This document shows positions 33,043 to 62,498 of a stretch of 64,000 nucleotides of DNA, in pieces (the first letter of the stretch is position 1; every line of letters begins with the position of its first letter). This stretch comes from a virus (lineage: Duplodnaviria; Caudoviricetes), in IMG/VR virus record IMGVR_UViG_3300050491_000011. One strand, written 5' to 3'. The position numbers were made by a program, and so were the translations under genes. Under the pieces are notes generated by a model. The model searched no databases. It saw only the letters and a list, made by a program, of their open reading frames with translations, and was not told the DNA's origin.

Positions 33043-34050
33043 ATGTCTGAAGTAATCAACACTGGCCTGATCAACGTTCGTCCTCGCACTATCCGTTTCT
33101 ACGCCTGTGGTGGTACTGCAATCAACCAACTGCGCGCTTACCGTGACAACCATCCGGGCGAGCCGCGTCTGCACGGCGACGAGAAATACAGCTACATCGA
33201 TACTTCCTTCGCCAACCTCGACGGCGCTCTGCTGTCCGAAACCTTCACCCTGAAAGGTGTCGATGGTTCCGGTTCCAACCGTAAACAGAACGCGGCGAAG
33301 ATCGTTGCTGCGCTGCCTGAAATCATGTTGGCTCATCAGGCTGCTGATTTCAACGTCGTGATCTTCTCTCTGTCGGGCGGTACTGGCTCTGTTGCCGGTC
33401 CGATCATTCTGAAAGAACTTCTGGCCAAAGGTCACAAAGCTGTCGGCGTTACTTCCGCAGCCTTCACCTCCGGCAAGAAATCCTCCAACGCCATCGATAC
33501 CCTGACTGGCCTGGAGCTGGCTGTTGCGTCCGTCGGCCGTCCGGTTGTTCTGAGCTACACCCCGAACGATCCGAACAAGACCGATTCCGACAACAACATC
33601 AAACCACTGTTCGTTCTGCAAACCCTGGCCAAATTGGCGAGCGGCAAGAACGGCCATCTGGATTCGTCCGACGTGGCGAACCTGTTCGACTTCCACACCG
33701 TAACCAACTACAAGCCATCGCTGGCTCTGCTGGATGTTTACGCCGGTGAAGAACAACTGAAAGCTGACGTCACCAGCGCCATCGGCATTGCCGGTTTGCT
33801 GAAAGACCGCACCAGCGTCATGCCAGCTATCAACGCTGCGTACGACACTGTGGGCTACCTGCCTGAAGACAACCGTGACTTCGCCAACTCCTTCTACTTC
33901 GTCGTTTCCATCGAGAAACTGAACGGCGTCGTGAAAGACATGAACGACCGCAAAGCTCAGGCTGAACTGAAAGAACGCGTCACCAACACTGTCTCCACCC
34001 TTGCTACCGCTGGCGTTGTGGTAGATGAAGCAACCGGCCTGGTCCTCTAA
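33043..34050 (+). CDS. phuZ: Phage tubulin PhuZ
   Basis: FYACGGTAIN nucleotide-binding loop, tubulin signature SLSGGTGS and an acidic-hydrophobic C-terminal knuckle (VVDEATGLVL); 335 aa. Confidence 0.93.
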   Translation: MSEVINTGLINVRPRTIRFYACGGTAINQLRAYRDNHPGEPRLHGDEKYSYIDTSFANLDGALLSETFTLKGVDGSGSNRKQNAAKIVAALPEIMLAHQAADFNVVIFSLSGGTGSVAGPIILKELLAKGHKAVGVTSAAFTSGKKSSNAIDTLTGLELAVASVGRPVVLSYTPNDPNKTDSDNNIKPLFVLQTLAKLASGKNGHLDSSDVANLFDFHTVTNYKPSLALLDVYAGEEQLKADVTSAIGIAGLLKDRTSVMPAINAAYDTVGYLPEDNRDFANSFYFVVSIEKLNGVVKDMNDRKAQAELKERVTNTVSTLATAGVVVDEATGLVL

Positions 34051-34068
34051 GACCTGAGCCGTAATTAG

Positions 34069-34099
34069 ACTGCGGGGCCAAGTGCCCCGCGGTTTATGC
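34069..34099 (+). terminator. Hairpin + TTTATGC after phuZ
   Basis: ACTGCGGGGC-CAAGT-GCCCCGCGGT-TTATGC. Confidence 0.65.
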
Positions 34100-34125: not shown

Positions 34126-34350
34126 ATGGCTGTAAATCTGAATATGCGTTTTGTCTGTGACCACTGCGGTAACGTAGACGATCTGCATCACACTCATCAA
34201 TCGGGCGGTAACGGTTTTGAATGCCATCGTTGTAAGTTTGGCTACTGGCACAACCACTTCTCCGAAGACAAGTACGATGAAGTCCACCACGTCTGCACCA
34301 ACCGCGTCAACCCATACTTCAATGAAGACGGTTCACCGAAGTTCTGCTAG
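34126..34350 (+). CDS. Zinc-ribbon micro-protein (74 aa)
   Basis: CDHC...CHRC plus further His and Cys residues. Confidence 0.7.
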   Translation: MAVNLNMRFVCDHCGNVDDLHHTHQSGGNGFECHRCKFGYWHNHFSEDKYDEVHHVCTNRVNPYFNEDGSPKFC

Positions 34351-34361
34351 AACCACAAACG

Positions 34362-34407
34362 CTAGGAGATCCGTAAAACGGTCTCCTAGTGGCGTTCTTT
34401 CTTTTTT
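34362..34407 (+). terminator. Intrinsic terminator
   Basis: CTAGGAGA...TCTCCTAG stem followed by a T-tract. Confidence 0.7.
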
Positions 34408-34517
34408 GTTATCACGGTATTCATTTGTAACTGAAACGGCTCCTATGCATCCTGTAGAGCCTTGTAGATGTATTTATCTACAAAACGACCTAATCATGTA
34501 GGCTATAGGGGACACGT

Positions 34518-34910
34518 ATGTTCGAGAATTTAGAGTTACCTGACAGGGTGCTAGATGAAAGACACTTCACAGTTGTCGACATCACCGATCAGGTCGATCT
34601 GCTTAAGAGACACGGTCCATTCCATGAACCAGTAATGGAAGCATGGATGGCGCGGCACTACGCTAAGAATCATGGCGTAGCTTGTGTTAGTGCTAGTTTG
34701 TTCGATAGACCAGCCGAGCACAGCATGTTTGAAAGAATGCAAATGTCGTTAACTGCGACAGAGCTAGGGCTTCGTCCTGTTGACTTCCTTCCAGAGCCAG
34801 AAGATAACTGGCTGGATGAATGCGGCGTCTGGTTCTACGTTCGTGGAAACTATTTAGCAATGGGGAATAGCCGTGCTATTGAAAAATGTTGGCGACGACT
34901 GCGTAATTGA
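34518..34910 (+). CDS. Hypothetical protein, first of the small-gene array
   Basis: GGGGA ribosome-binding site; 130 aa. Confidence 0.7.
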   Translation: MFENLELPDRVLDERHFTVVDITDQVDLLKRHGPFHEPVMEAWMARHYAKNHGVACVSASLFDRPAEHSMFERMQMSLTATELGLRPVDFLPEPEDNWLDECGVWFYVRGNYLAMGNSRAIEKCWRRLRN

Positions 34911-35325
34911 TTTCTCAGAGATCAGTGACAATTTCTTCGGTGAAGCTACAAAGTTTACAAAAGAGCCAACATCCAGAGATAGACGAACTGTAGAACGTGT
35001 AGTTGGCGAGATGTTCGATGACTACATGACGAAGAGCATGACTTGGACTAAATCGTTCCATGACTTCAATGAGGGGTACTTCATCAATCGGTTGCCTAAG
35101 TGCTGCCGCGATCATCCGAACATCCGTACGATCATTATCGATGTTTACGATGAGATCTCCGATGTGATGGCTGAGGTGATGTCATTGCCTACATGGTACG
35201 ACGTATCAATGCGTGTATCAGGAACCGCCATCCGTATGGAGGTCGGTGAAGACCAGCGTATAGTTCAGTGGACAGAAGAGCACGGTCATGAGTATTCGAC
35301 TAACTACAACGGTAAAGGATGGTGA
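34873..35325 (+). CDS. Small acidic hypothetical protein (array member)
   Basis: 150 aa, acidic, with a C-terminal beta-hairpin-like YDVSMRVSGTAIRMEV. Confidence 0.65.
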   Translation: MLLKNVGDDCVIDFSEISDNFFGEATKFTKEPTSRDRRTVERVVGEMFDDYMTKSMTWTKSFHDFNEGYFINRLPKCCRDHPNIRTIIIDVYDEISDVMAEVMSLPTWYDVSMRVSGTAIRMEVGEDQRIVQWTEEHGHEYSTNYNGKGW

Positions 35326-35779
35326 TACTAACGTCCACGCTGTGGACGAGTGGTACTCACGGTTCAAATACACCATGGAGAACAATGGTACAGAGCTCCG
35401 TTGGCTTGACAGGGATGTAAGGAAGTTGATGGTAGACACCGCTCAACTGGTTCTTGATCCTTACTCATCCTCTCTCCAACAGCTCGTTACCAGAAACACC
35501 CGCAATCGGAGGCAGTACCTTGACCTCTTAGATCAGCTGGTGGAGTTCGACAATGAAATTCGGGAGGTTATCAGGGCGTGCTGTGGCAACGGCGGTACAG
35601 TTGCTGACGTCTATATCCCCCACGACAAACTTATACTCGTCTTCCAATTGGAAGAAGTTCGGAGGCCCAATGAAACTGGATTTGAAACTTATATCGAATC
35701 TTGTCGAGGAAGCGGTGAATACATCCACCCAGAACTCGACAAGCACCTCAGGCACTGGAGATCCATCGGCGGCGCCTAG
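35288..35779 (+). CDS. Small hypothetical protein (array member)
   Basis: 163 aa with VADVYIPHDKLILVFQLE; the exact start is uncertain. Confidence 0.6.
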   Translation: MSIRLTTTVKDGDTNVHAVDEWYSRFKYTMENNGTELRWLDRDVRKLMVDTAQLVLDPYSSSLQQLVTRNTRNRRQYLDLLDQLVEFDNEIREVIRACCGNGGTVADVYIPHDKLILVFQLEEVRRPNETGFETYIESCRGSGEYIHPELDKHLRHWRSIGGA

Positions 35780-36209
35780 CTATTCGTATAAGTACGTTAT
35801 TGTTGATGTCGGTGACTTCAACATGACTGACATATCCGAAAGCACGTTGATCGATCCGGGCGCTCTACTGAAGGCTGTATTGAAGTACGAGTTCTGGGAC
35901 GACGACTTCGACTTCAAACATCTGTCTCAGGACATCCCAGATCCGTCTGAAGGCAACGTATCTCTGGCACTCGACGCTTGGTACGCCGACAACGTAGATC
36001 GCATGCACGACACGTTTGAGTTTCTGCGTGATGTACGGCCGGCTGTTATCAGCGACTGCATCATCGTACACGGTCAATGCCTGATCGAAATCTGTAAGGC
36101 GTTGTCTCCTGAAGCCCAACTTGAATTGGACGATCCAGATCTCCACCTCGAGCCGGCTACGGATCTGGACGAGGATGACGCGGACGTTCAGGACGAAGGT
36201 GATGAATGA
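35670..36209 (+). CDS. Small acidic hypothetical protein (array member)
   Basis: GGAGG at 35661-35665 before ATG 35670; very acidic C-terminal tail. Confidence 0.65.
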   Translation: MKLDLKLISNLVEEAVNTSTQNSTSTSGTGDPSAAPSYSYKYVIVDVGDFNMTDISESTLIDPGALLKAVLKYEFWDDDFDFKHLSQDIPDPSEGNVSLALDAWYADNVDRMHDTFEFLRDVRPAVISDCIIVHGQCLIEICKALSPEAQLELDDPDLHLEPATDLDEDDADVQDEGDE

Positions 36210-36613
36210 AACTCGGAAGGGGAACACCGCGTTCTCTGATCGTGGATATCGATAACGAATTCCACGAAGCTCTGGTACGTTTGGGCGATCATGTCCCTTC
36301 GTACGAGCGAAACCAGTTCATCCAGTACACCGCTAGCATTCTGTTGATGTCGTTGTTGATGTGCGATAGGGATGGTGCAGTCGATGCATTCGAACGCATT
36401 ACCTCTCTTGCACACATCGATGACCAGAAGAAGCATGCGACTATCTGGGGTGAGTTCTTAGCGTTAGCCAACTACTTCCACAGCCACTACTACCATCATG
36501 ACGAATTGATAAGGGATCTTGAAGACATGATCCCTAAGAACCCGAAGGAATTCGCGGAGCTTATATTCGAGGTAGAGGTTGCTGAGAAGGGTGGTTATCT
36601 GAAGGTGAGTTGA
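36206..36613 (+). CDS. Small hypothetical protein (array member)
   Basis: ATGA overlap with the previous stop; 135 aa. Confidence 0.7.
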   Translation: MKLGRGTPRSLIVDIDNEFHEALVRLGDHVPSYERNQFIQYTASILLMSLLMCDRDGAVDAFERITSLAHIDDQKKHATIWGEFLALANYFHSHYYHHDELIRDLEDMIPKNPKEFAELIFEVEVAEKGGYLKVS

Positions 36614-37051
36614 ATGACTACAAACCGTGACTCGATTCGGATCATTGCTGAGATCGACGGACACGGCAGCCAGTGCTTATTCAATATCGCTGATGACTTG
36701 CAGAAGATGCCAGACTTTGAAGGTGAAAGCCTCGATTATCTGGCATCTCTGGTTCTCAGTTCGATTGTTGACTATTGGTGTCTAGCGGAGATGGACGAAC
36801 TGTCCTACATCCTAGGCGCCTGCGATGAGTACGATGATGTTGAAATAGGTCGTCGGGCTAAACGCGCACTAATGGATCTGTCGAAAGCCGATCTTATCGA
36901 TTTCCCGGATTTCTATAACACCAAGCTAACTCTGGTTGAGATAGCGCAAGAGCAGGAGAAGAAAGGTTGGAAGAAGTACAGGTTCACTGAGCCTGAAGTT
37001 AACCCCAACCGGAAGTTCTTCGTTGTCTGGATGGAATACCTCGAAGATTAG
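36614..37051 (+). CDS. Small acidic hypothetical protein (array member)
   Basis: Abuts the previous stop; 145 aa. Confidence 0.7.
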   Translation: MTTNRDSIRIIAEIDGHGSQCLFNIADDLQKMPDFEGESLDYLASLVLSSIVDYWCLAEMDELSYILGACDEYDDVEIGRRAKRALMDLSKADLIDFPDFYNTKLTLVEIAQEQEKKGWKKYRFTEPEVNPNRKFFVVWMEYLED

Positions 37052-37060
37052 GGAGGTCAG

Positions 37061-37378
37061 ATGTTGGAAACAGAACAATTTGTTATCGAGATAAATCCTA
37101 ACCACGGCGTATCTGACTCCGCCGTGGGTTTTATGCTGTCTAACTGGGTATTGGACTCCGCTGCCCGTAAGGAATGGCTGAGTACGGAAGTGCTGGTTAC
37201 CCTCACCCATGACTACAACCTCAACCTTAAAACCATTGAGAAGATGTCTGGTGATGTACTGGATGCCTTGGAGGACTGCGGGTTATATGCGCAACTGATG
37301 ACCGACGATCGCAGGCTTAGCTCAGTAACATGTAGGGTTAAGCGCGATGTGGCATTAATTGATCTGGAGTGGACATGA
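37061..37378 (+). CDS. Small acidic hypothetical protein (array member)
   Basis: GGAGG ribosome-binding site; 105 aa. Confidence 0.7.
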   Translation: MLETEQFVIEINPNHGVSDSAVGFMLSNWVLDSAARKEWLSTEVLVTLTHDYNLNLKTIEKMSGDVLDALEDCGLYAQLMTDDRRLSSVTCRVKRDVALIDLEWT

Positions 37379-37746
37379 AAGCAAATACGTTACCAGCTGT
37401 CGCCAACAAAACGATGATCGCTGTTCACAACGACTCACTCAACAGCTTCATTAATACCGAGGATCTATCAGAACACGTCAAGGTTCTATCAGGGATCGCG
37501 TTTGATTTCGTAGCAGCGATGCCAATCTGTCAATATGTTTATAACTGGCCGCCTGCTGAAATCATCCTCGATCGCTGCACCGGGAAGTCAAAGCTTTCCA
37601 CGTTATACAACGCTTTGTTCGATGAACTGTCTGAGAACGGATACCCAGTGTCTGTCCTTATGACCATGCAGGTTGTCCAACATGTCCCGAAACGATATAC
37701 CTTGCTTTCCGTACCACTCGCGTCGCGCCTCGGGAGCCTCCACTGA
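37369..37746 (+). CDS. Small hypothetical protein (array member)
   Basis: Overlaps the previous stop; 125 aa. Confidence 0.65.
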   Translation: MDMKANTLPAVANKTMIAVHNDSLNSFINTEDLSEHVKVLSGIAFDFVAAMPICQYVYNWPPAEIILDRCTGKSKLSTLYNALFDELSENGYPVSVLMTMQVVQHVPKRYTLLSVPLASRLGSLH

Positions 37747-38110
37747 TAAGGAGTTCATCGTTGTAGATATTAGCGACCTTGTTCGTGAGTTCTGCAATGA
37801 TGTCGACAGGCAGGTGGAAAGTCTCTCGTACGACATCGAAGGCATCATCAGACAGTATTCGGCTTACCGCCATGTAGGACGGTATGATGAGATCGTAACA
37901 GGTCTGTCAAACAAGTTCCTAGAGCTAGGTTGCGTAAAAGTTGAAGATGATGCGCCAATAATAGCAAGAGCTGCCCTCACGTTGTATCGTGCTATCACCG
38001 ACCATATTCGAGACTTAGAATACTTGGTCGGAGCAATCCACGATGTGAAGTTGAAGCTGAACAGTATCAACCGGCAGATAAGATGTAACGCAATCATGAT
38101 GGTTATCTAA
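37673..38110 (+). CDS. Small hypothetical protein (array member); start uncertain
   Basis: 145-aa ORF with IVVDISDL and a C-terminal IHDVKLKL. Confidence 0.6.
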   Translation: MSNMSRNDIPCFPYHSRRASGASTDKEFIVVDISDLVREFCNDVDRQVESLSYDIEGIIRQYSAYRHVGRYDEIVTGLSNKFLELGCVKVEDDAPIIARAALTLYRAITDHIRDLEYLVGAIHDVKLKLNSINRQIRCNAIMMVI

Positions 38111-38128
38111 CCAGTACGGAGCTGTTTC

Positions 38129-38494
38129 ATGAAAAACCACTGTATCGTAGGCTACAGTCCGGGGTTCTACGATTACCTGCAATCAGTGGGGTATCGTGAA
38201 GTCCCGGAACAAGTGTCAGCGGATGAACCGGACTCCCCTCTGGCCTCCATCGACACACAGTTCGTAAACTGGGAACGCGTTGAGTTCCTTGACTACCTGA
38301 CCAATTGCATGATCGGTATCGAGTCTATTGATCCGGATTATCGGGCTACCGTTGAAAGTCTCTATGAGGCTATTGATGACGATGATTTGAGACAACTGGT
38401 CGAAGAAGGTTCGATCGAAGATTTGATATTTAATGACCGAGGCTATTATCTGGCTCGGCTGGAGAGTGTAAATGCCCCTCAACGAATCTTTTAA
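38129..38494 (+). CDS. Small acidic hypothetical protein (array member)
   Basis: GGAG ribosome-binding site; 121 aa. Confidence 0.7.
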   Translation: MKNHCIVGYSPGFYDYLQSVGYREVPEQVSADEPDSPLASIDTQFVNWERVEFLDYLTNCMIGIESIDPDYRATVESLYEAIDDDDLRQLVEEGSIEDLIFNDRGYYLARLESVNAPQRIF

Positions 38495-38867
38495 AGGGAA
38501 GGTGCTCAGTTTCGAGCTGAGCTCTGGTATCCGGTATACGAACTACAAGCTGCTGGCCCTGCTCGATGTGGGGACGGTTGTAGCGGTGGGTTTCCAAGCA
38601 GCAGGGGAACATCACCAGAACTTCCCGTACATGCCAGCAGATACTCCAGATGACTTCACGGCGTATTCGTATGCCAAGTTCGTCGATCCGGAGAACAAGA
38701 TCCTGTACGTTGGCGTCCCGTGGATCAAGGAAGGTTCGATTACCGTCCTCGACAACGTCAACTACAACTGCCTGCTCCTGAACCCAACCGCTGCCGAGAT
38801 GGACACCTTCCGTTCAATCCTCGTGGCCTCTGGGTTCGAAGGACGATTCAAGCTCACCGTAGCCTGA
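38472..38867 (+). CDS. Conserved chimallivirus hypothetical protein directly upstream of the DNA polymerase
   Basis: GGAG ribosome-binding site; beta-rich, with VGVPWIKEGSI. Confidence 0.7.
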   Translation: MPLNESFKGKVLSFELSSGIRYTNYKLLALLDVGTVVAVGFQAAGEHHQNFPYMPADTPDDFTAYSYAKFVDPENKILYVGVPWIKEGSITVLDNVNYNCLLLNPTAAEMDTFRSILVASGFEGRFKLTVA

Positions 38868-38976: not shown

Positions 38977-41109
38977 TTGATGGCTAACGATAACCCGTTC
39001 CTCTTACCAGTAGAGGAATACAAACGTGACATCGATGTCAAGAAAGGCTATATCCAACAGGTAGCCAAGTATCTTTCACTTCAGCTTAAACTCCCTTACG
39101 AGAACACGCTGAAGTACGTCCTTAAGAAAGTAGCTAAGGGCGGCATGTTTGCATTCAAAGATCCTGCAATGCAGCAGTTGATCAAGAAGGCTCGCGGTCA
39201 CCGGGTAGAAGATGAAACCACCTTCCTCGGTTATATCGAAGAGATTCGTGAGTCCGGCCGTATCGTTTCCCCGTCGCTGGTGGTTTACGAACGCCCAGAA
39301 GTAGAACGTTCCGTTACAGCTGAATGGCTGGACGATAACATCGCGGCTCGTAAGAAGTCGAAGAAGGCGATGTTTGAGTTGAAGCAGATCGGTGAACTGA
39401 TGAAGTCTGCTCTTGCGGACTATGATCAGAACGCCCGTAAGATCCGTATCAACTCAGTTTCCGGTATGCGCGGCTTTGAAGGTAACCCAATCTTCTTGGC
39501 AACCGGTCACTCCAGTCTGACATCTATGTGTCGGGCAGCAGCGGGGTACGGTAACGCCACTGTTGAAAGGTTCATGGCGGGGTCGAAGCATTACCATACG
39601 CCAGAGATAGCCAAAGCCAACCTGACAGCCATTACGACTATTGAGCAACTAAGTCGTGTCCAGTTGGTGATCGATGAGTACAACCTCGTCTATCCAAACG
39701 TGGATGACGTGGTAGCAATGGTTAAGCGTTCTGCCGAATTGTACTGGGACATTCCTCACGAGATGGAATTGATCCGCGGTATGGCAGAAGGGATGACTCC
39801 ACTGGAACGTGCCACCGTCTGCTACTCGGGCGACATGTACCACTTGGCTAAGTTCAACCCAGAAGTTGTTCGTAACCTGATGGGTGAGATGATCGCCATT
39901 AATATCGATGACATGGAAGACGTTGATACTGACGCCATCCTCATGACTGTCGATACCACGGCCATCGCTTACATCAACGCCCTGTGTGCAAACATCCTGA
40001 AAGGTAGTACGCACAAGCTGGTTAAAGAGAACAACCCGGCAGGGTGGCAGACCATCGGTCGTACAGCACAACGCTTTAAAGAGGCGTCTGCGAAGTACGC
40101 AACCCTGATCACTAACCTATTTGCGCCTAAGCATCTTCCGCCGACTGTAGCCGCTCTCAAGGGCATTCAGCGCCGTGTATGTCTGGCAGCAGATACCGAC
40201 TCCTCCATCTTCAGTACTGAATACTGGGTTGAGTGGTACACCGGCAGCATGAAGCGTGGGGAAGTAGAGGACCGTATCTGGTATCTCGCCACCTACATGT
40301 CGTGCCAGTGCATTGCGCACAGTCTGGCAATGTTGTCGGCTAACGTTGGTGTGGAACGTTCGCAACTCTTCCGTCTGGCAATGAAGAACGAGTACGCCTT
40401 CCCGGTGTTTGCTCTGACCAACCTTGCTAAGCATTACTTCTCCTTCATGTCCATGCGGGAAGGTAACGTTTACGAAGAGAATGAACTGGAGATCAAAGGT
40501 GTGGAGCTGCGTGGTTCTACTGCGCCTAAGCACATCTTGAAGGCGGCTGAGGAGATGATGGAGAACATCGCTACTCACGTCAACGAAGGTCGGAAGATGA
40601 ATGCGGGTAAACTCCTGCGGTTCGTTGCTGATCACGAGATCGAAACCATCCAGTCCATTAAGCGTGGGGAATACAAATACCTACGTTCTGCTCAGATCAA
40701 GCCGGACAGTAACAAGATGCTTCACCACGAACTGTGGCAAGAAGTGTTTGCTCCTAAGTACGGTGAATCTGTAGCGCCACCGTATCCATGCGTAAAGATC
40801 ACTTCTGAGTTGTCTAACAAGACTAAGACTCAGGAATGGTTGGCGGGTATGGAAGATCAGGAGCTGGCCAAGCGTATGGCAGCGTGGATGATCAAGTGGA
40901 ATCGTAAAGAGATCACTACCTTCTATCTGCCGACCATGGTTATCAAGAATGGTGGTCTTCCAATCGAACTACAGGAAGCTGCAAACGTCCGGAAGTTGGC
41001 CTACCAGATCAACTCAGGCTTCTACCGGATCTTGGAGTCTACTGGCCTTCATTTGGTGGATCGTAACAACTACCGTCTCATCTACGACTTCTTGGGACTG
41101 ACAGCATGA
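38977..41109 (+). CDS. Family B DNA polymerase, polymerase-domain subunit (phiKZ gp50-like)
   Basis: Motif B-like KIRINSVSG, motif C ADTDS, and IKGVELRGS. No N-terminal proofreading domain is apparent. Confidence 0.88.
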   Translation: MMANDNPFLLPVEEYKRDIDVKKGYIQQVAKYLSLQLKLPYENTLKYVLKKVAKGGMFAFKDPAMQQLIKKARGHRVEDETTFLGYIEEIRESGRIVSPSLVVYERPEVERSVTAEWLDDNIAARKKSKKAMFELKQIGELMKSALADYDQNARKIRINSVSGMRGFEGNPIFLATGHSSLTSMCRAAAGYGNATVERFMAGSKHYHTPEIAKANLTAITTIEQLSRVQLVIDEYNLVYPNVDDVVAMVKRSAELYWDIPHEMELIRGMAEGMTPLERATVCYSGDMYHLAKFNPEVVRNLMGEMIAINIDDMEDVDTDAILMTVDTTAIAYINALCANILKGSTHKLVKENNPAGWQTIGRTAQRFKEASAKYATLITNLFAPKHLPPTVAALKGIQRRVCLAADTDSSIFSTEYWVEWYTGSMKRGEVEDRIWYLATYMSCQCIAHSLAMLSANVGVERSQLFRLAMKNEYAFPVFALTNLAKHYFSFMSMREGNVYEENELEIKGVELRGSTAPKHILKAAEEMMENIATHVNEGRKMNAGKLLRFVADHEIETIQSIKRGEYKYLRSAQIKPDSNKMLHHELWQEVFAPKYGESVAPPYPCVKITSELSNKTKTQEWLAGMEDQELAKRMAAWMIKWNRKEITTFYLPTMVIKNGGLPIELQEAANVRKLAYQINSGFYRILESTGLHLVDRNNYRLIYDFLGLTA

Positions 41110-41862: not shown

Positions 41863-41900
41863 GCATACAGAGCGGGGCAGTGCCCCGCTCTGCTTTATGC
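41863..41900. terminator. Bidirectional GCATA-hairpin-TTTATGC element
   Basis: GCATA-CAGAGCGGGGC-AGT-GCCCCGCTCTG-CTTTATGC between convergent genes. Confidence 0.75.
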
Positions 41901-42980: not shown

Positions 42981-43144
42981 TTCAATGCCCCGGATAGATG
43001 GTTGCGTAAAAAGTTACACATGTTCACTATTATATAGTAGATCCCTCGAAGACACTCGTAACCCGAGTGTCTCGACAGCGTCTGCTACCCCTGCACGCTG
43101 TTTAGAGTCATTTTATTTGGATCGCGACCAACTTATTTTGGATG

Positions 43145-43215
43145 ATACATTACCGTCTAGCATATAGAAACACGCTGATGGATTTGAATCTAAAAACATT
43201 ACAGGTATACATTAC
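43145..43215 (+). promoter_or_regulatory. Three tandem CATTAC-type candidate promoters upstream of chmA
   Basis: ATACATTAC at 43145-43153, AAAAACATTAC at 43192-43202, ATACATTAC at 43207-43215. Confidence 0.6.
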
Positions 43216-45474: not shown

Positions 45475-45500
45475 GTCGGCAGATGCGGTAAACTGACACG

Positions 45501-53153: not shown

Positions 53154-53175
53154 GGTCTGAGAGCATTTAGCGTTT

Positions 53176-53216
53176 GTGATACAGGGCCTCACAGCCTTGT
53201 ATCACGGGCTTTATGC
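53176..53216 (+). terminator. Hairpin + TTTATGC
   Basis: GTGATACAGGGC / GCCTTGTATCAC stem followed by TTTATGC at 53210-53216. Confidence 0.65.
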
Positions 53217-53241: not shown

Positions 53242-53250
53242 ATACATTAC
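53242..53250 (+). promoter_or_regulatory. ATACATTAC candidate promoter of the gp68-picA-gp70 operon
   Basis: Exact motif about 45 nt upstream of ATG 53294. Confidence 0.6.
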
Positions 53251-53293
53251 TTATTAGAGCAAGCACCATATAGTGACCAAGCGGAGTGTATTG

Positions 53294-54883: not shown

Positions 54884-54923
54884 AAAGTTCAATCCCCTAG
54901 AGTATTAAGCACAGGAGTAATTC

Positions 54924-56513
54924 ATGGAACTTGTTAAACTTATCTTCGTGGAAACTGAAGGCAGCGACACTCCAGTCATTCGCCCTTACGAAACCTCGTT
55001 GAAGAAAGACGACCTCGATCTGTTTGCAAAGGCAACCGATGATGGTGCGAACCTCAGCACTATCCGGCTGGCCAAGGTTGTAGCTCCACTCCTCGGTCCA
55101 TCGAACCGCCGGCAGCACAAGTCCCACATCGCCAACGGCTGGTCCGAATCCCGGATCATGTTCGGCATGGTTGTTAAGGTGATGAACCGTGACAACGCCA
55201 GCACCTACGAGTATATCGTGGGCTATACCGACAACAGCGAACACGCCCGTCGTGGCGACACCGCGAAGTTCGATGCTGGCATGAAAATGTACTTCAATAA
55301 CATTACGAGGGTTCACATGCAGGAATCCCGTCACCGTAATGATAACATCTGGGTGCCGAAGATTCAGGCGCATGACCAGATCCTCCTGCGTTCCAGCCTG
55401 ACCGGTTCTGATCGTGGCACTACCCGTGGCGGCGATCGTCCAGTTACTCTGCGTCCTACCGACTTGTTCAAGCGCGGTGGTGCAGATGCGGCATTCGGGT
55501 CGTTCATGCGTGATAACGATTCGAACGTAAACAATACCGTTGGTTCGTTCAGCTCGGCTATCCGTGCATCGAACGTTGTCAACAACAGCCAGACCGCATA
55601 CGCGGCCCGTAACCTGAATGCGTGGATGCAGGCGAGTAATTCGCCTAACGATGCGTACGTTGGTGACGGTAATGATGAAGACACCATCCAGGCAGCTTCT
55701 GATCGTTTGGCAGAGAACTCTCTGGAACTCGATCCGTATCTGGAGCGTATCAAGCGTGATACCAATATTCTCCGTGAAGGTTGCATTACTTTCGGCGAAC
55801 TGATGGACATGAACGAAGACTTCGATGAAGATCGTCAGTTGATGTTCGTTCCGTTGGACAAGCGTAAGCGCGGTGGTTTCATCAACAACTCCGCATGGGG
55901 TGAAGATACCAACGAGGCAATCGCTGCGACCATCATCGCAAACTCCCTGCCCGGCATTCTGATCAACTCGATGTATTCGTCGGTATCTGGTCTGGTGCTG
56001 AACAGCCGTGCGCGCTTCGGCGAGTACAAAGTGGTCTGCTCTGAGCCAACTCCGTTTGCTCCAGGCATGTCGGTTAAGGCGAACTGGCCATACTTCGAAA
56101 GTCAGATCGAACACGTTCTGATGGAAGAAGTTGGTTGCGGTGGTGCGTTTGAGTTTGAAGCGTACATCGACGCGAACATCGACCAGTACATCAAGATCCG
56201 TATCCGGATGGATGGTGGTGAAGAAGCATCGTTCAACTTCCCAGCTTACGCGTCCAGTCTTCTGGCGCCTACGCAGGATAAAGACTTCAAGTCGCTGGAC
56301 AAAATGTCGAAAGGCGTTATCGATCTGGCTTCCGGTCTGTCGAACATGCGGATGTCTCGCGCAGGCATCGGGTCTCAAGAAGATGGTCTCAACACTGGCA
56401 GCGAAAGCCGCATCAAGTTGGGCGCCAGCAAAGAGCCTCGTTCTCGTGACAATGATTACAGAGCCGCTCCAGCAGCAGCCTCTGGCGATAAGAAAGGTGG
56501 TAAGGGCTGGTAA
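54924..56513 (+). CDS. picA: Phage-nucleus import factor PicA/Imp1-like (phiKZ gp69-like)
   Basis: 529 aa with VIRPYET and IANGWSESRIMFGMVV; canonical position after the gp68-like gene. Confidence 0.75.
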   Translation: MELVKLIFVETEGSDTPVIRPYETSLKKDDLDLFAKATDDGANLSTIRLAKVVAPLLGPSNRRQHKSHIANGWSESRIMFGMVVKVMNRDNASTYEYIVGYTDNSEHARRGDTAKFDAGMKMYFNNITRVHMQESRHRNDNIWVPKIQAHDQILLRSSLTGSDRGTTRGGDRPVTLRPTDLFKRGGADAAFGSFMRDNDSNVNNTVGSFSSAIRASNVVNNSQTAYAARNLNAWMQASNSPNDAYVGDGNDEDTIQAASDRLAENSLELDPYLERIKRDTNILREGCITFGELMDMNEDFDEDRQLMFVPLDKRKRGGFINNSAWGEDTNEAIAATIIANSLPGILINSMYSSVSGLVLNSRARFGEYKVVCSEPTPFAPGMSVKANWPYFESQIEHVLMEEVGCGGAFEFEAYIDANIDQYIKIRIRMDGGEEASFNFPAYASSLLAPTQDKDFKSLDKMSKGVIDLASGLSNMRMSRAGIGSQEDGLNTGSESRIKLGASKEPRSRDNDYRAAPAAASGDKKGGKGW

Positions 56514-56553
56514 AGCCCTTTTCACAAAACCCTATTAATGACCACGGGAATCA

Positions 56554-57831
56554 GTGATGAGTGTAAGTAAGCTCGATCGAATGAATGCCTTCAATCGGAA
56601 GATCCTACTCGAAGTAGGCGTTTTCGAAGAAGAAGTTGATGATGGGCATCTGTCCTATCTGAAGGACGGTAAGCCGTCTCCAGTAACCTTGAACAAGACG
56701 CGCCTGTGCATTACTGTACAGCGTATCCTGAAAGAAGGTCTGGGTGAAGAACGTACCGGGTTCCAGCCTCTTGCTGAGCAGATCACCGAAGGTCCAAGTC
56801 CTGTACTGAACGCCTTCAAGAACTACATCGGTGAGCGCATCAAGGCAACGGTTCGCCATATCGGCCTGTCGTTGATGGAACTGGCATCCGACTCCAAGCG
56901 GCATAAAGGCATGTCTGCCAAGGCTTCCAAGTATCTGACCGCTCTGGCAGGTATTGGTGAAGTCGATGAAAAGACTGTCGATACCATGCGCAAGGTGTTC
57001 GATGCGGTAAGTCAGGTTCCTGAGAAGCACCTGATCTCCATTATCCTGAAGGCTAAGACCGACGACGGTAGTCTGCGTCAATCGTTCGTATCCTTTCCGA
57101 TCATGGATGAAGCCGATAGCGAAGAGACCGAAACCTTCTTTGGCGTGAAGATGCCACGGAAGACCAAGGACAAAGCGCTGATTGTATCGGTTCTCGAATA
57201 CATCCTGGGCGACGAGCCAGCTCGCAAGATGTACACCTCCGGCAGTAAGAACGGCAACTCGCCGTACTTCCACAGCCTGTTGTTGTCCTTCCACAAGCTG
57301 GCAACTCGGTTGAACGACATCCTCAACGTGCATTCGGCCAAGTGCCCATCGTTCGAAGAGCTGAAGTTCAATCTGGACTGGACCGACGAACTCGATAACT
57401 TCGACGACTTCGCGAAGGTTTGCAGCCGAGCAGTTCCTGCTCTGCCGGGTAACACCGGTAAGGAAATCGACGAAGAACGTTCTGCGTTCGAAGCAAGTGC
57501 AAGTGATGTTGGTGCCGATGATGATCTGCCGTGGAATGAACCTAAAGCCAAACTCAGCATCGGTAGCGATGACGAGAAGCGTCCGGCCGCTGGTTCGAGT
57601 TTCCGCGACACTGTTAACAGCTCTCGTTCGAGCCGTGATCGTGATGATGATCGCTCGGATAGCCGTTCGAATCATGGAAGCTTCCGTGACCTGATGGGTG
57701 GCAAGAGCCGTGACCGCGATCGTGATGATCGTGACAGCCGTCGTGAAAGCCCGAGCTGGCGCTCAGGCCGTGACCGTGACGACCGTGACCGTGATAGCGG
57801 CCGTGGTGGACGCGGTGGCCGTGGCTGGTAA
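56554..57831 (+). CDS. Nucleus-associated protein (phiKZ gp70 position) with an RD/RS/RGG-rich C-terminal tail
   Basis: 425 aa ending ...RDRDRDDRDSRRESPSWRSGRDRDDRDRDSGRGGRGGRGW. Confidence 0.75.
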   Translation: MMSVSKLDRMNAFNRKILLEVGVFEEEVDDGHLSYLKDGKPSPVTLNKTRLCITVQRILKEGLGEERTGFQPLAEQITEGPSPVLNAFKNYIGERIKATVRHIGLSLMELASDSKRHKGMSAKASKYLTALAGIGEVDEKTVDTMRKVFDAVSQVPEKHLISIILKAKTDDGSLRQSFVSFPIMDEADSEETETFFGVKMPRKTKDKALIVSVLEYILGDEPARKMYTSGSKNGNSPYFHSLLLSFHKLATRLNDILNVHSAKCPSFEELKFNLDWTDELDNFDDFAKVCSRAVPALPGNTGKEIDEERSAFEASASDVGADDDLPWNEPKAKLSIGSDDEKRPAAGSSFRDTVNSSRSSRDRDDDRSDSRSNHGSFRDLMGGKSRDRDRDDRDSRRESPSWRSGRDRDDRDRDSGRGGRGGRGW

Positions 57832-57887: not shown

Positions 57888-58229
57888 CTAACTAGCGTTC
57901 AGGCTAGTACGGTAGATTTGTTTAAACCGCGCAACCAAGGCCATGTCAGGCACGAGGATGTGGTTGATCGTTTCATCAATCTGGTGGATAGAGGTAAACC
58001 CGTTAACTCGCATCACCAGATAATGATCCTCAAGTGGTACGCTGTTCGCTAAAAGGAACTGCGTTAGGTCGAACCTGTAGAGATATCCAGTCTCAGGAGC
58101 TACCGGTACTTGACGGGTGGAATCCGATTCTCTGAAGTACATGATCAGAGAGTCTACGTACGTCCGATATTCTTGAGTGAGTGTGAAGCTTGAGGGAGAC
58201 GCTACGATCCACTTGGAGATGCCAGTCAT
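57888..58229 (-). CDS. Small antisense gene, possibly LysM-like (T4 gp53 / tail X-like baseplate) protein
   Basis: YRFDLTQFL...YLVMRVNGF...ILVPD pattern; AGGTAAG ribosome-binding-like site. Confidence 0.55.
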   Translation of the reverse strand: MTGISKWIVASPSSFTLTQEYRTYVDSLIMYFRESDSTRQVPVAPETGYLYRFDLTQFLLANSVPLEDHYLVMRVNGFTSIHQIDETINHILVPDMALVARFKQIYRTSLNAS

Positions 58230-58252: not shown

Positions 58253-58265
58253 GTTATACATTACC
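58253..58265 (+). promoter_or_regulatory. GTTATACATTACC candidate promoter of the nvRNAP beta/beta' operon
   Basis: Motif about 42 nt upstream of ATG 58307. Confidence 0.6.
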
Positions 58266-58306: not shown

Positions 58307-60487
58307 ATGAATCCATTTGATCCAACCGATCATTTACCTCAAGAGCGCTACACCATTCCGCCGGAGATGGTTCCGATCAGTGGTTTGAACTCTCAATTCA
58401 AATGTGTCTCTGGTGCCCGTCAGGCAATGTTCACCGGTAACCTGTCCCAAGTATTGATCGTGGATGGCCGTACCCGTAAACGCCAGCAGACTGGGTTGGA
58501 ACGTGAGATTGCCAAAGCTACATTTAACCATCAGTTTCCTCGTGAAGCTGTGGTACTGGCAATCATCCCCCGCTTTACATCCCGTAACTTCGGCGATAAG
58601 TTCCAGATCAACCCGTTCGATCTGGTGATCTACGAGGATTGGGAAACGAAAGAACTGGACGTGGTTGAACTCAGCAAGTTTCACGTAATGCACCAGCATT
58701 ACGGGTTTGAGTTCGAGTACGATCAGGACGTCTACGACGCCATCACCAAAGGTAAGCGCTTCAAGGCAGGTACTGTAATTGCTCGTTCTCCGGCTGTAAC
58801 GGATGATGGCGACTACATGTACGGTCTGGAAACCAACGTCTGCATGATCTCTGATCCGGCAGGTACTGAAGACGGTGTAAAGATCAGTCAGAGTTATGCC
58901 AAGCGTATTCGCTCGACAGGCTTTGAAAGTCGGATTGCTCGCTTCGGCGGCAGCCATTACCCGATTAACTGGAACGGTAACCTGGAAGAGTACAAACCTA
59001 TTCCAGACATCGGTGATTTCATCCAGTCAAACGGTCTGATCTGCGCTTCACGGCCTTTCGATCCAAAGTACGATCCAGTCTACATGACTCGTACTAAGCT
59101 GCTTAAACCGCAGTATGGGTTGGATACACCGCTGTACGGCGTACCTAACGCTCAGGTCGTAGACATCCGAGTCCTTCATAACGATAGGCTGTCTTCCCCG
59201 AAACTACCTAAGGAAATGACTAAACAGTTCCTGAAGTACTACGAGGCTGACCAAGAGTTCTACACCAAGATCGTTAAGACGTGCCTCTGCCGGAAAGGTA
59301 ACTTCCTGGCTGACGACGTTGCAATGTCTCCACGTCTGCGCATCCTCCTGTACGAAGCAATCGCACGTAGCGGTGAGCGTCTGCTGGAAGAAGGCATCTG
59401 GCCGAAGAGCAAAGCCGACCAACTGCGTGTTCGCACGAAGTATCGCGGTGAGATCTTGGATGAGTTCCGTGTGGAAATCATCTATCAGTACAAGACCTCT
59501 GTGGGCGAAGGCCCTAAGGTTACTGACCAATCTGGTGGTAAAGGCGTTACTTCGGCGGTTGCTCCAGACGAAGACATGCCTACTGACGAGAACGGCGTAC
59601 GCGCCGACGTAGTGATCTTCTCGAACTCTACGGTAAACCGCCTGAACAACGGTCGTCAGCATACTCAGGTTATCGGCGCTGCTGGTCGTGACATCATCAA
59701 ACGTGTACGTAAGTCCTACGGTCTGCCACCTGTTGGCGCGATCGACAAGGCTGAAGTCAAGCGTGTGGTGACGTCTCAGAACAACGTGGCTGTGACCATG
59801 AAGAACTTTGCGTACATCATCGGCTTCTATAAGCTGGTGGCTCCGGCGATGTACGAACGTCTTACTCGCAACGATATCATTCCGCAAGGTATTCACTTGC
59901 AGCATGTAATCGAAGTGATCATGGACGGTGAAGTTGACCACGGTCTGTTCCTGCAACTCGCTTCCAGTGATGAGGTCTACATGGACCAAGTCATCCGGGA
60001 GATCGAGGCTGGTCCGTACATGCCAGACTTGACTCCGGTTAAGTATCGGAATCTGGCTGGTGAGATGGTAACTACCAAGACCAAGATCCTGATCGGTCCT
60101 GACTACTACCTGCCTTTGGAGAAGACGGCTACCGACGGTTCCGGTGTATCGTCCTCCAAGACAAACCACTTCGGCGTTACTGCCCGTCTGACGAATGCTG
60201 ACAAGTATTCCAGCCCTGGCCGTGAAACCGTAACCAAATCTACCGGTGAGTCCGAAGCGCGTAACCACGCTCACGCCTACGGTGCTGAGCCCCTTGCTCA
60301 CATCATGGACTTGAACTACAACCCGGTGGTTCACAAAGAAGCCTGTATGACGATCCTCACTCACGAGACACCGACCAACATCGAATGTCTTGTTGACCGT
60401 GAGAAGTTTAAGCTTGGTGGACATCGTCCGCTGGCTTACGTTCGCCACATGATGGCCGTATCTGGTAAGAATATCTCCAGGGAGTAA
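58307..60487 (+). CDS. Non-virion RNAP beta-like subunit, C-terminal half (phiKZ gp71-73-like), uninterrupted
   Basis: SGARQAMF, TEDGVKIS, GPKVTDQSGGKGV, ADVVIFSNS and TGESEAR, all beta region H/I-like motifs. Confidence 0.9.
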   Translation: MNPFDPTDHLPQERYTIPPEMVPISGLNSQFKCVSGARQAMFTGNLSQVLIVDGRTRKRQQTGLEREIAKATFNHQFPREAVVLAIIPRFTSRNFGDKFQINPFDLVIYEDWETKELDVVELSKFHVMHQHYGFEFEYDQDVYDAITKGKRFKAGTVIARSPAVTDDGDYMYGLETNVCMISDPAGTEDGVKISQSYAKRIRSTGFESRIARFGGSHYPINWNGNLEEYKPIPDIGDFIQSNGLICASRPFDPKYDPVYMTRTKLLKPQYGLDTPLYGVPNAQVVDIRVLHNDRLSSPKLPKEMTKQFLKYYEADQEFYTKIVKTCLCRKGNFLADDVAMSPRLRILLYEAIARSGERLLEEGIWPKSKADQLRVRTKYRGEILDEFRVEIIYQYKTSVGEGPKVTDQSGGKGVTSAVAPDEDMPTDENGVRADVVIFSNSTVNRLNNGRQHTQVIGAAGRDIIKRVRKSYGLPPVGAIDKAEVKRVVTSQNNVAVTMKNFAYIIGFYKLVAPAMYERLTRNDIIPQGIHLQHVIEVIMDGEVDHGLFLQLASSDEVYMDQVIREIEAGPYMPDLTPVKYRNLAGEMVTTKTKILIGPDYYLPLEKTATDGSGVSSSKTNHFGVTARLTNADKYSSPGRETVTKSTGESEARNHAHAYGAEPLAHIMDLNYNPVVHKEACMTILTHETPTNIECLVDREKFKLGGHRPLAYVRHMMAVSGKNISRE

Positions 60488-60518
60488 TCCCTGGCGGTAC
60501 AACGTAGGAGCGTGTTAA

Positions 60519-62498
60519 TTGGCAAGTCACCGTCGATTCAGAGCCCGTGATCTGTTCGAACAAATGGTACATCTTTGGCCGTGTAAAGAATACGAGGAGT
60601 TCATCCTCGAGTTTGATGACGGCGATACGATGACCACCACAACAATCAATACCCAGATCTCCCGCAAGCTCTGGTTGCCACACGAGGTGTACAACAAACT
60701 CGGCATCTATAAACGTCACCACATCGGTAACGGTTCGATGTCCAATGAACGCATCCATGAAGTACAGGCTGCGATCACTGAAGACATGTACAACACGTAC
60801 GGTGAGAAAGGCTTTAACCGTGAAGAGTTGTGGCGACACAACTATTACGGCACCAACCGTCTGTACAACGAATCGATCATCGAGTATGCGGCGTATGTTC
60901 GCGGCAGTAACTCGTTCGACTTCAGCCATCTGTACGAGTATCCGCCAATCCACAAGATCCGGACCGAATGTAAGCCTAACAAGCTATCAATCGAGAAGGC
61001 TTACGATGCGGCGAAGTTGGTTCTGGAACGTGACCCTGCATTGGCACGTAACGTAATCATCTCTGACCTGCGGGCTGGTCTGCTCAAGATGGAGCAGTTG
61101 CTTCAGATCCTCATCGTGCGTGGCTACAACACCGACATCGATGGGCACGTATACAGCAAACCAATCATGGGCAACTACTTCGCAGGGATTCATGATCCAG
61201 CTGAAGCCATGATGGAATCCACACTGGCCGCTAAGGCTATCATCTTTACTGGTGCGCCGCTCGAACAAACCGAGTATGCAAACCGGAAGATGCAGTTCAC
61301 TACCCAGCAGGTTGACTTGCTGGTAATGGCTGACTGTGGATCGACTGAGTACGGAGAGATTGAGATCACCAAGTTCAGGTTCAAAGCCATGGACGGTCTC
61401 AACTATCTCGATCCTGATACCAACAAGCTGAAACCCCTGCGGATGGCTGACACTCACCTGATCGGTGAGACACGCAAGTTCCGTCTGGCGTTCAACTGTA
61501 AGTACCGGCATCACAACAACGTCTGCAAGATGTGCTACGGCTTGCTGGCGTATAACGTGCCGTTCGGTGCTAACATCGGCCACATCGCATCTACAATGAC
61601 CCAATCGGAAGTATCTCAGGCAGTGTTGAAGGTTAAGCACTCTGAGGCGTCTGCTTCTTCTGATCCGATCATCATTCAAGATGAAGAAAGACCGTACATC
61701 CTCCCAGCATCTGAAGGTCACCAGATTCGTCTGAACCCAAGGCTGGGCGTTAAGGGTATTCCGCTGATGCTTCGCGGTGGTTACTCTCAGGGTGTTCACA
61801 ACGCATCGAAGCTGCCTGTACTGAAACGTAACGATCTGCGTGCTGGCGTAAACATCGCCAAGTTCAGTCAGTTCCGTGAAGTCAGCTTTGAGCTGCCTAG
61901 CGAGAACAAGCAGTCGAACCGGGTACACGTCACGGTATCCCGTGGCGCTCGCATGTCGAACCTGACTCGTGAGTTCCTGGACTACTTCCTGAAGAAAGGC
62001 TTCCGAATCGATGATGATGGTTATTATCGGATTGATCTGAAGGATTGGAACTTCGACCTGCCAGCCTTTGAAATGCCAAACCGTCACGGTAGCATGAAGG
62101 ATCACGCAGCAGTAGTGGAAGTAATGATCCGCTCTACTCGTGACTCTAACCAGCGTCACCTCGGCCGGTTGAAGCAACTCAAGGACTATGCTAACCCAAC
62201 TGAAGCAATGTTGGATACGCATGAACTGATCGCGCTGAAGGTTCCTGTTCACTTCACCCACGTCGCTATTGTGTTGCTGTCTATGATGGTATCCAGTACG
62301 AAGTCCGGTGATTACAGGATTCCACCTCTGGGCGAACCTACACGGTTTGCTAAATACGATCACGTAATCAGTGGTCGTTCCATGGGTGCGTTCTTCGCCT
62401 ATCAGGGTGGTCGTAACCTGCTAGATACACTTGAGCAGTACATGATGAACGAACGGGAACAACATCTGCTTGATCCACTGCTGATGCCCGGCTGGTAA
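60519..62498 (+). CDS. Non-virion RNAP beta'-like subunit, C-terminal half (phiKZ gp74-like)
   Basis: TTG start; DCGS; zinc site CKY...VCKMCYG; IGHIASTMTQSEVSQAVLKVKH bridge/trigger-like region. Confidence 0.88.
   Translation: MASHRRFRARDLFEQMVHLWPCKEYEEFILEFDDGDTMTTTTINTQISRKLWLPHEVYNKLGIYKRHHIGNGSMSNERIHEVQAAITEDMYNTYGEKGFNREELWRHNYYGTNRLYNESIIEYAAYVRGSNSFDFSHLYEYPPIHKIRTECKPNKLSIEKAYDAAKLVLERDPALARNVIISDLRAGLLKMEQLLQILIVRGYNTDIDGHVYSKPIMGNYFAGIHDPAEAMMESTLAAKAIIFTGAPLEQTEYANRKMQFTTQQVDLLVMADCGSTEYGEIEITKFRFKAMDGLNYLDPDTNKLKPLRMADTHLIGETRKFRLAFNCKYRHHNNVCKMCYGLLAYNVPFGANIGHIASTMTQSEVSQAVLKVKHSEASASSDPIIIQDEERPYILPASEGHQIRLNPRLGVKGIPLMLRGGYSQGVHNASKLPVLKRNDLRAGVNIAKFSQFREVSFELPSENKQSNRVHVTVSRGARMSNLTREFLDYFLKKGFRIDDDGYYRIDLKDWNFDLPAFEMPNRHGSMKDHAAVVEVMIRSTRDSNQRHLGRLKQLKDYANPTEAMLDTHELIALKVPVHFTHVAIVLLSMMVSSTKSGDYRIPPLGEPTRFAKYDHVISGRSMGAFFAYQGGRNLLDTLEQYMMNEREQHLLDPLLMPGW

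Follow-up and report, generated by a model that had tools for sequence, protein, structure and literature searches.

We analysed a 64,000-nucleotide stretch of phage DNA (IMG/VR record IMGVR_UViG_3300050491_000011; Duplodnaviria, Caudoviricetes), hereafter the window, and focused on the block of genes at 33043-62498. The window has a GC content of about 51% and is part of a jumbo-phage genome. Within the block lie genes for a PhuZ tubulin, a chimallin (ChmA), homologues of the proteins ChmC and PicA, and pieces of a non-virion RNA polymerase (nvRNAP) (Table 1). In the open reading frame (ORF) listing, the real genes of the block are almost all on the plus strand. An initial annotation, made from the letters and their ORFs, had read this region as a complete phage-nucleus toolkit; every gene that it listed proved to be an ORF where it had placed it, in that order and on the plus strand, and family matches agreed. 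To assign the genes, we combined family scans (Pfam, PHROG and NCBIfam), sequence searches of the PDB, AF2 models, Foldseek searches of the PDB and hhalign profile-profile comparison. On the strength of profile matches, synteny, fold prediction and profile-profile comparison, the region is very probably the conserved core block of a Chimalliviridae-type nucleus-forming jumbo phage, from an uncultured soil and rhizosphere lineage whose nearest isolate is Pseudomonas phage pPa_SNUABM_DT01 (MW735835.1; hereafter DT01). The initial annotation had named the same block, with PhuZ, chimallin, ChmC-like, PicA-like and nvRNAP components, and profiles, synteny and folds agree with it. What is shown directly here are the identities of the genes, the synteny, the ChmA and ChmC folds and, as a prediction, an interface between PicA and ChmC.

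BLAST of the window ORFs against annotated genes gave a one-to-one map in which the genes follow the order of PhiPA3 gp028-gp067 and of DT01, an order also kept in 11 IMG/VR relatives. When PhiPA3 proteins were scanned against PHROGs, gp053, gp055, gp056 and gp058-gp064 showed one-to-one PHROG identity with their counterparts here. DT01 shares 43% identity in the DNA polymerase and 23% in ChmA. A megablast search of 43462-47046 against 50,697 deposited phage records found no match, and so no close DNA relative among isolates. Soil and rhizosphere metagenomes of several studies hold near-identical DNA, and a soil contig from another study covers 43000-47100 with 16 differences. For genome-wide searches we used a complete relative (G001; 253,921 bp, direct terminal repeats, about 95% identical); IMG/VR UViG_3300041411_000129 is a clade genome of 253,921 bp.

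Table 1. Features of the block and its surroundings, with their principal matches.
Feature	Positions	Strand	Match or remark
ATACATTAC early-promoter-like motif, five exact copies	32100-32108, 43145-43153, 43207-43215, 53242-53250, 58256-58264	+	all intergenic
PhuZ tubulin, 335 aa	33043-34050	+	phrog_4733 E 1.6e-71
Tight run of about ten small ORFs	34217-38494	+	no family match; between phuZ and gp49-like gene
Homologue of phiKZ gp49 / PhiPA3 gp046	38472-38867	+	
Divergent family B DNA polymerase, phiKZ gp50 type (DNAP-N)	38977-41109	+	PF20286 E 1e-212
Homologue of phiKZ gp52 / PhiPA3 gp051	41895-42980	-	phrog_3938 E 3.8e-45; blastp E 7e-19
Chimallin ChmA, major nuclear shell protein, 670 aa	43462-45474	+	PF25677, phrog_4795, chimallin fold
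nvRNAP beta' N-terminal subunit (phiKZ gp55)	45556-47046	+	phrog_2987 E 9e-130; 7ogp_A PHIKZ055 E 5.6e-70
Imp3-like (phiKZ gp59 / PhiPA3 gp055)	47048-47674	+	phrog_3254 common to both; blastp 27%, E 3e-20
Fast-evolving accessory ORF, 195 aa	47688-48275	+	no family match (Pfam, PHROG, NCBIfam)
Homologue of phiKZ gp62 / PhiPA3 gp056	48547-48972	+	phrog_3294 common to both; DT01_150 E 1.5e-22
Clade-conserved ORF, 172 aa, positional counterpart of PhiPA3 gp057	48982-49500	+	no family match (Pfam, PHROG, NCBIfam)
Homologue of phiKZ gp64 / PhiPA3 gp058	49550-50251	+	phrog_5171 common to both
SbcD-like nuclease (phiKZ gp65)	50217-51404	+	phrog_100 E 1.4e-39; PF00149 Metallophos; 34% to PhiPA3 gp059
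Homologue of phiKZ gp66 / PhiPA3 gp060	51418-52275	+	phrog_3229 E 8.7e-80, PhiPA3 gp060 in same family
ChmC / Imp6, Whirly-fold, G/N/Q disordered tail	52341-53153	+	phrog_3284, common with PhiPA3 ChmC
nvRNAP fifth subunit, sigma-like (phiKZ gp68)	53273-54883	+	phrog_3209 E 2e-92; PHIKZ068 7ogp_B E 1e-39, full length
PicA / Imp1 import factor homologue	54924-56513	+	phrog_3141 E 2.8e-58, common with PhiPA3 gp063
Homologue of phiKZ gp70 / PhiPA3 gp64, R/D-rich tail, GRGW end	56554-57831	+	phrog_3520 E 1.6e-48, common with PhiPA3 gp064
Small opposite-strand gene between gp70-like gene and nvRNAP beta	57888-58229	-	DT01_159 E 2e-8
nvRNAP beta piece (phiKZ gp71-73), no intron	58307-60487	+	phrog_3295 E 6.5e-172; PHIKZ071 7ogp_C E 1.2e-110
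nvRNAP beta' C-terminal subunit (phiKZ gp74)	60519-62498	+	phrog_3015 E 1.8e-151; PHIKZ074 7ogp_D E 9e-74
Helicase, position of phiKZ gp75, cut by window end	63129-63998	+	phrog_16 E 2.3e-9

The chimallin and the tubulin

The chmA gene has a GTG start, with a GGAG Shine-Dalgarno sequence 7 nt before it. Its product matched PF25677 over residues 104-623 (40.6 bits, cut-off 27) and phrog_4795, 'nuclear shell protein', over residues 10-638 (E 2.3e-36). Single-sequence search of the PDB gave a weak result (E 0.01 to PhiPA3 PhuN), and profile and fold searches were required. We collected 26 metagenomic homologues, aligned 22 of them with the query and built an AF2 model (pLDDT 71, pTM 0.73). When this model was compared with the PDB by Foldseek, the nine top matches were all chimallins of Goslar, 201phi2-1 and PhiPA3, with E values of 2.6e-26 to 3.4e-20 (entries 7sqt, 7squ, 7sqv, 7sqs, 7sqq, 7sqr, 8igg and 8fne; target TM 0.74-0.81, identity 17-18%), and the tenth match reached only E 0.017. 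As modelled, the 43462 product adopts the chimallin fold over its full length. The initial annotation had offered to give up its reading if this protein lacked the chimallin fold; only solved chimallins were matched, and its own test favours it.

Two tails, residues 1-75 and 623-670, were modelled with low confidence and are predicted to be disordered. The first is 20% E and 20% R, with an R/E/D-rich stretch at residues 9-55, and the second is a G/R/S-rich C-terminal tail. Within these tails R63, R68, P69, G72, G73, G624, R629, G632, G645 and R648 are invariant in the clade (22 homologues). Such conserved disordered tails are as expected for segments that lace chimallin protomers into a lattice; docking of the tails into neighbouring protomers is an expectation only. 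The charged tails that the initial annotation had remarked on are thus real, and its impression of a 'highly biased' gene can be traced to the stretch at 9-55 together with a GC content at third codon positions (GC3) of 0.69, the highest among the block genes measured.

Could the protein be a chimallin homologue with another role, in a phage that builds no closed nucleus, the block being left over from an ancestor that formed one? In a protein known from sequence only, the very low identity to chimallins studied so far would fit such a history, but the protein keeps the chimallin fold along its full length, the parts of the tails on which lattice contacts depend are conserved within the clade and chmA has that highest GC3. 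Moreover, every one of the dependent import and nvRNAP genes is intact, and complete genomes of about 240-268 kb carry the gene set as well. We regard a relic as highly improbable.

The gene at 33043, called a tubulin in the initial annotation, encodes PhuZ by phrog_4733, by PF22334 (28.1 bits, cut-off 27) and by PhuZ chains in the PDB (3r4v/3j5v/3zbp, E 1e-20 to 3e-18; 9pm9, E 7e-41); its PF00091 score of 26.9 bits lies under the cut-off of 33. Alignment with PhiPA3 PhuZ showed that the CGGT and GGTGS motifs and the NxIDT T7-loop region are conserved. These matches accord with a phage tubulin that has a GTPase domain, a TubZ-type C-terminal domain and a C-terminal tail.

Import factors and terminal peptides

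The ChmC-like gene sits between the gp66-like and gp68-like genes, as expected for PhiPA3 gp61 / phiKZ gp67, and a clade profile of its product aligned with PhiPA3 ChmC at an hhalign probability of 98.7% (E 1.8e-16). Published ChmC is an RNA-binding homotetramer with a Whirly fold and an N/G-rich disordered tail (PMC11077065). The AF2 model of the protein encoded here (pLDDT 80 overall, about 90 over residues 11-220 and below 50 over residues 221-270) was compared with 48,161 PDB chains. Its best four matches were StWhy2, T. brucei MRP1/2, PBF-2 and Pur-alpha, with Z of 7.7-8.1: StWhy2 aligned over 135 residues with Z 8.1 and a root-mean-square deviation of 5.3 Å, and the other three over 124-141 residues with Z 7.7-7.8 and deviations of 5.2-6.5 Å. 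All four have the Whirly/PUR fold published for ChmC, and MRP1 is the comparison structure used in the ChmC paper (PMC11077065).

The C-terminal region of the ChmC-like protein (52986-53153) is disordered and N/G-rich with an acidic end; a G/N/Q/P linker leads to a terminal FDDDIPF. A terminal D-[ILV]-P-[FLM] is found in 26 of 26 ChmC-like sequences, namely this protein and 25 clade homologues, and known ChmCs carry looser versions of the tail. DDDIPF is the docking hexapeptide at the C terminus of bacterial single-stranded DNA-binding proteins (SSBs) (PMC5872125). The NCBIfam matches of the protein were four SSB models only, end-to-end on the tail, at E 0.02-0.09 and far below cut-offs. A phmmer search of the tail against the PDB returned no SSB, probably owing to the low complexity of the tail. 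A search of G001 for canonical SSB (PF00436) was negative, a result of limited weight.

The PicA-like gene adjoins the gp68-like and gp70-like genes, and its product is homologous to phiKZ gp69 / PhiPA3 gp63 over its full length: the clade profile aligned with PhiPA3 PicA over 468 columns (hhalign 99.8%, E 1.7e-28), and blastp gave 20% identity (E 9e-12). PicA/Imp1 proteins are characterised by a punctum at the shell and by being needed for selective import. The role of PicA has been published (PMC11087766). Because phiKZ Imp1 binds Imp6 directly (bioRxiv 10.1101/2024.03.27.586873), we chose the PicA-ChmC pair for complex modelling. The model scored 0.63 with a partner pLDDT of 74, and the best of three controls scored 0.02; in calibration, 58 of 80 solved complexes and 2 of 110 mismatched pairs scored at least as high. 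Runs 2 and 3 agreed in 89% of contacts. The predicted interface joins PicA residues 183-210 to the ChmC helix/strand 79-104 and includes the clade-conserved residues F191, N204 and G207 of PicA and N103 of ChmC. PicA has no sequence relative in the PDB, and the pass is therefore unlikely to be a memory of a solved complex. Direct binding of the PicA-like to the ChmC-like protein is supported by this model, not shown. The fold, both hhalign comparisons and the complex score bear out the ChmC-like and PicA-like assignments of the initial annotation.

A third import factor is encoded directly after nvRNAP beta'N. By homology and position the 47048 product corresponds to phiKZ gp59, that is Imp3, an import factor required for Imp1 function (bioRxiv 10.1101/2024.03.27.586873); 47048 is the likelier start of this ORF, which was listed from 47006. 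The gp70-like protein is a homologue of gp70 / PhiPA3 gp64, a protein that associates with the nucleus and its shell (PMC11077065; bioRxiv 10.1101/2024.03.27.586873) and that did not bind Imp1 in a pull-down.

A basic-Gly-Trp peptide closes both the PicA-like protein (tail region 56400-56513) and the gp70-like protein (tail region 57700-57831), in each case behind a disordered R/D-rich tail, and nvRNAP beta'C ends in PGW (62480-62498). Of 30 PicA-like sequences 26 end in W, as does the gp70-like protein, both here and in all ten relatives that hold that gene. Other phages show other PicA/gp70 end pairs: DLGLL and GLGLL in PhiPA3, NLGLL and GMGLI in 201phi2-1, GNF and NRF in Goslar. The pairing was not seen in Eowyn, Xoo-sp14 and Ralstonia phages. 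This apparent co-variation of termini is suggestive, not proven. Paired ends on unrelated proteins suggest that the PicA-like and gp70-like proteins might share or compete for one receptor pocket, for example on the ChmA lattice. A broader idea, which also draws on the SSB-type end of ChmC, is that short lineage-specific C-terminal 'handles' of shell-associated factors form a docking code. We consider this unlikely; if it were true, it would give the first mechanistic foothold for the gp70-like protein and make import-site assembly testable by peptide swaps.

Polymerase genes, an upstream motif and a proposed mechanism

Four nvRNAP genes align full-length with chains A-D of the phiKZ nvRNAP structure 7ogp. 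The hallmarks of a phiKZ-type nvRNAP were found, namely split beta and beta' pieces, a gp68 subunit and the catalytic NADFDGD, which beta'N carries at residue 426. The 58307 product also matches PF00562 (Rpb2 domain 6). No gp123-type second beta piece was matched within the window; one was found in G001, about 100 kb from the block (E 5.8e-61). The initial annotation had labelled 58307 'beta-C', and the label stands, given the 7ogp_C match and the location of the gp123-type piece elsewhere. Reading 58307 as an unsplit, full-length nvRNAP beta was ruled out by the literature and the PDB match, which make it a gp71-73-type piece. Opposite-strand genes of similar size to that at 57888 occupy the same place in DT01, 201phi2-1 (gp127), Goslar (gp172), Eowyn and Xoo-sp14.

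Five exact plus-strand copies of ATACATTAC occur, against 0.27 expected, and none of 100 shuffles reached five. Enrichment is confined to the exact motif: with one mismatch, 14 sites were found against 8.9 expected. Two copies precede chmA, at distances of 317 and 255 nt; one is found 31 nt before the gp68-like gene and one 51 nt before the beta gene, and the copy at 32100 is upstream of the phuZ region. The copies have an extended context in common, TAAAA..TACAG..ATACATTAC. In all 11 relatives a core TACATTA(C/T) keeps its place ahead of the gp68-like gene, and in nine of them it does so ahead of the beta gene too; the core persists down to about 41% protein identity, even as its flanks diverge. 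The motif resembles the published promoter consensus of the phiKZ group (TATATTAC in phiKZ and WTTTYAAACCTACATTATY in EL; PMC7058600, Table 2). We infer that these sites are early promoters; such a motif would fit a virion polymerase that expresses chmA, phuZ and the nvRNAP genes early (PMC13282480).

All that these proteins would do in the cell, including shell formation during infection, we infer from homology to phiKZ, PhiPA3, 201phi2-1 and Goslar. On that model, an injected virion RNA polymerase (vRNAP) would begin early transcription from TACATTAC-type promoters before chmA, the gp68-like gene, nvRNAP beta and the phuZ region. By way of its terminal tails, ChmA would self-assemble into a protein lattice that encloses the phage DNA, and PhuZ filaments would position the compartment. 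PicA/Imp1, with the help of Imp3 and with ChmC/Imp6 bound, would license selective import, and its cargo would include the nvRNAP subunits encoded here (beta'N, the beta piece, beta'C and the sigma-like gp68). Export of mRNA would be assisted by ChmC, acting as an RNA binder of the Whirly-fold tetramer type with a condensate-prone G/N/Q tail. DNA inside the shell would be handled by the divergent family B polymerase, its gp49-like partner, the SbcD-like nuclease and the helicase.

Soil RNA-Seq data bear on two of these genes: short contigs of one library matched parts of chmA (44455-45090) and beta'N (45923-46070) with 90-95% likeness. They derive from a related strain and are weak evidence of transcription, not proof of it.

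Accessory genes and comparison with known systems

The initial annotation had counted six genes (47048, 48547, 48982, 49550, 51418 and 56554) as functionally obscure. This no longer holds for 47048, which is Imp3-like, or for 56554, a homologue of the nuclear protein gp70. For 51418, a mild antisense knock-down phenotype of its phiKZ counterpart gp66 has been published (PMC12571901). The label stands for 48547 and 49550, homologues of phiKZ gp62 and gp64, and for 48982, which is conserved within the clade only (11 of 11 relatives, 24-79% identity). The neighbouring 47688 ORF was found in the three closest of the 11 relatives only, at 64% identity, against about 95% for its neighbours. An NCBIfam scan of the unknown ORFs returned nothing, and ESM Atlas models of the gp66-like and gp70-like proteins gave nothing usable (pLDDT about 0.35, TM below 0.45). 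The DNA polymerase at 38977 shares 42.7% identity with that of DT01 and 36% with PhiPA3 gp047.

Between phuZ and the gp49-like gene, the run at 34217-38494 takes the place that the lineage-specific imp2/imp4 region occupies in phiKZ. A PHROG scan of its ORFs at 36614, 37061, 37369, 37673 and 38129 found no match; BLAST of the run gave no match to PhiPA3 gp042, gp044 or gp046, and tblastn of gp044 and gp045 against the window was empty. Searches of the window likewise found no match to gp123, ChmB, Imp2 or gp045, which neighbours the Imp2 gene in PhiPA3; Imp5 and Imp7 were not searched for. Of the 'complete' toolkit first claimed, the core is present, and the gp123-type beta piece, ChmB, Imp2 and PhiPA3 gp045 are unmatched in the window.

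These absences raise the possibility that a chimallin-type block was kept while the shell system was reduced or rewired, for example lacking a ChmB-type portal or the Imp2/4/5 adaptors and using the ORFs of 34217-38494, 47688 and 48982 as adaptors or pores. ChmB is unmatched in the complete relative G001 as well, Imp2 and PhiPA3 gp045 are unmatched in the window, Imp2/4/5 are published as restricted to Pseudomonas phiKZ-like phages (bioRxiv 10.1101/2024.03.27.586873), and clade-specific ORFs occupy the equivalent positions. However, the absences come from single-sequence searches of small, fast-evolving proteins and are weak evidence, and the broadly conserved ChmA, PhuZ, Imp1, Imp3, Imp6, gp70 and nvRNAP are all present and intact. 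We consider rewiring possible but doubtful; under it, accessory parts of the mechanism would differ from the phiKZ model.

Several further points weigh against assignment to the Chimalliviridae core block. ChmA shares only 17-18% identity with solved chimallins and 21-23% with its counterparts in PhiPA3 and DT01, values for PicA (20%) and PhuZ (29%) are low as well, and the C-terminal tail of PhuZ has fewer acidic residues than that of PhiPA3. The fold match of ChmC is of medium strength (Z about 8), in a range where common arrangements can score, and one of the three PicA-ChmC runs (run 1) had no interface. ChmB (PhiPA3 gp2) was found by single-sequence search in neither G001 nor the window, itself weak evidence. 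The phage is known from sequence alone, with no isolate, host or imaging. We nevertheless favour a conserved core block of a nucleus-forming phage.

Outside the block, 3-5956 and 7615-25321 encode vRNAP subunits (phrog_2986; phrog_3148, 1424 aa), a head maturation protease, virion proteins and the large terminase, a content typical of chimallivirus structural and vRNAP genes. At 29327-30823 (plus strand) lies a gene for a 498-aa protein with NADFDGN at residue 56, of which residues 56-149 partly match phrog_3015, the family of the nvRNAP beta'C gene at 60519; the protein may be an RNA polymerase-derived accessory protein with an altered metal-binding triad. Nearly full-length minus-strand ORFs lie opposite chmA, picA, chmC and the RNA polymerase genes (43150-45351, 54897-56525, 52317-53192, 59204-60502 and 60987-62363). 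Homology in these regions is all on the plus strand, with GC3 of 0.59-0.69, and the antisense ORFs are most likely shadow ORFs from codon bias. The plus-strand ORF at 41880-42335, which overlaps the real minus-strand gene at 41895-42980, is probably a shadow ORF too.

The block is textbook for nucleus-forming jumbo phages, and confirming it mainly provides a sound annotation of an uncultured soil lineage; the modest added value lies in comparative details. The core (ChmA, PhuZ, Imp1, Imp3, Imp6, gp70 and nvRNAP) survives at 17-30% identity, and divergence of this order marks residues, tails and interfaces that are truly conserved, such as the ChmA tail motifs and the predicted contact of PicA 183-210 with ChmC 79-104. 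A vRNAP-type early promoter motif appears to be retained in this divergent lineage, and the co-varying PicA and gp70-like terminal peptides could guide experiments in phiKZ or Goslar.

Compared with the known Chimalliviridae core block (phiKZ gp39-gp75; PhiPA3 gp028-gp067; 201phi2-1; Goslar), the block has the same genes, order and orientation and the PHROG families of every conserved member. Further shared features are the chimallin fold, the four nvRNAP pieces, a ChmC that combines a Whirly fold with an N/G-rich tail, and the small gene that precedes beta on the opposite strand. It differs in that identities are just 17-43% and that it comes from an uncultured phage in soil metagenomes. The beta gene here has no intron, unlike the interrupted phiKZ gp71/73 and PhiPA3 gp65/66. 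ChmA carries about 50 additional residues, rich in R and E, in its N-terminal part, the PicA-like and gp70-like proteins end in basic-Trp and not in the LGLL of the known block, and single-sequence searches found no homologue of Imp2 or PhiPA3 gp045 and no ChmB match. DT01 is collinear from the gp42-like gene to nvRNAP beta and gives the best identities of any isolate for the DNA polymerase (43%), beta (40%) and the gp66-like protein (44%), but identity is lower for ChmA (23%), PicA (28%) and PhuZ (34%); it is of a different lineage, and its genes are mostly annotated as hypothetical. A 2025 survey (BMC Genomics; PMC12625630) described 1103 metagenomic phages with chimallin and PhuZ, in 21 clusters, with genomes of 200-324 kb from soil and other ecosystems. 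The present genome is of the same kind. Since that survey had already catalogued such genomes, the lineage is a divergent but ordinary representative of a well-described system and not a new kind.

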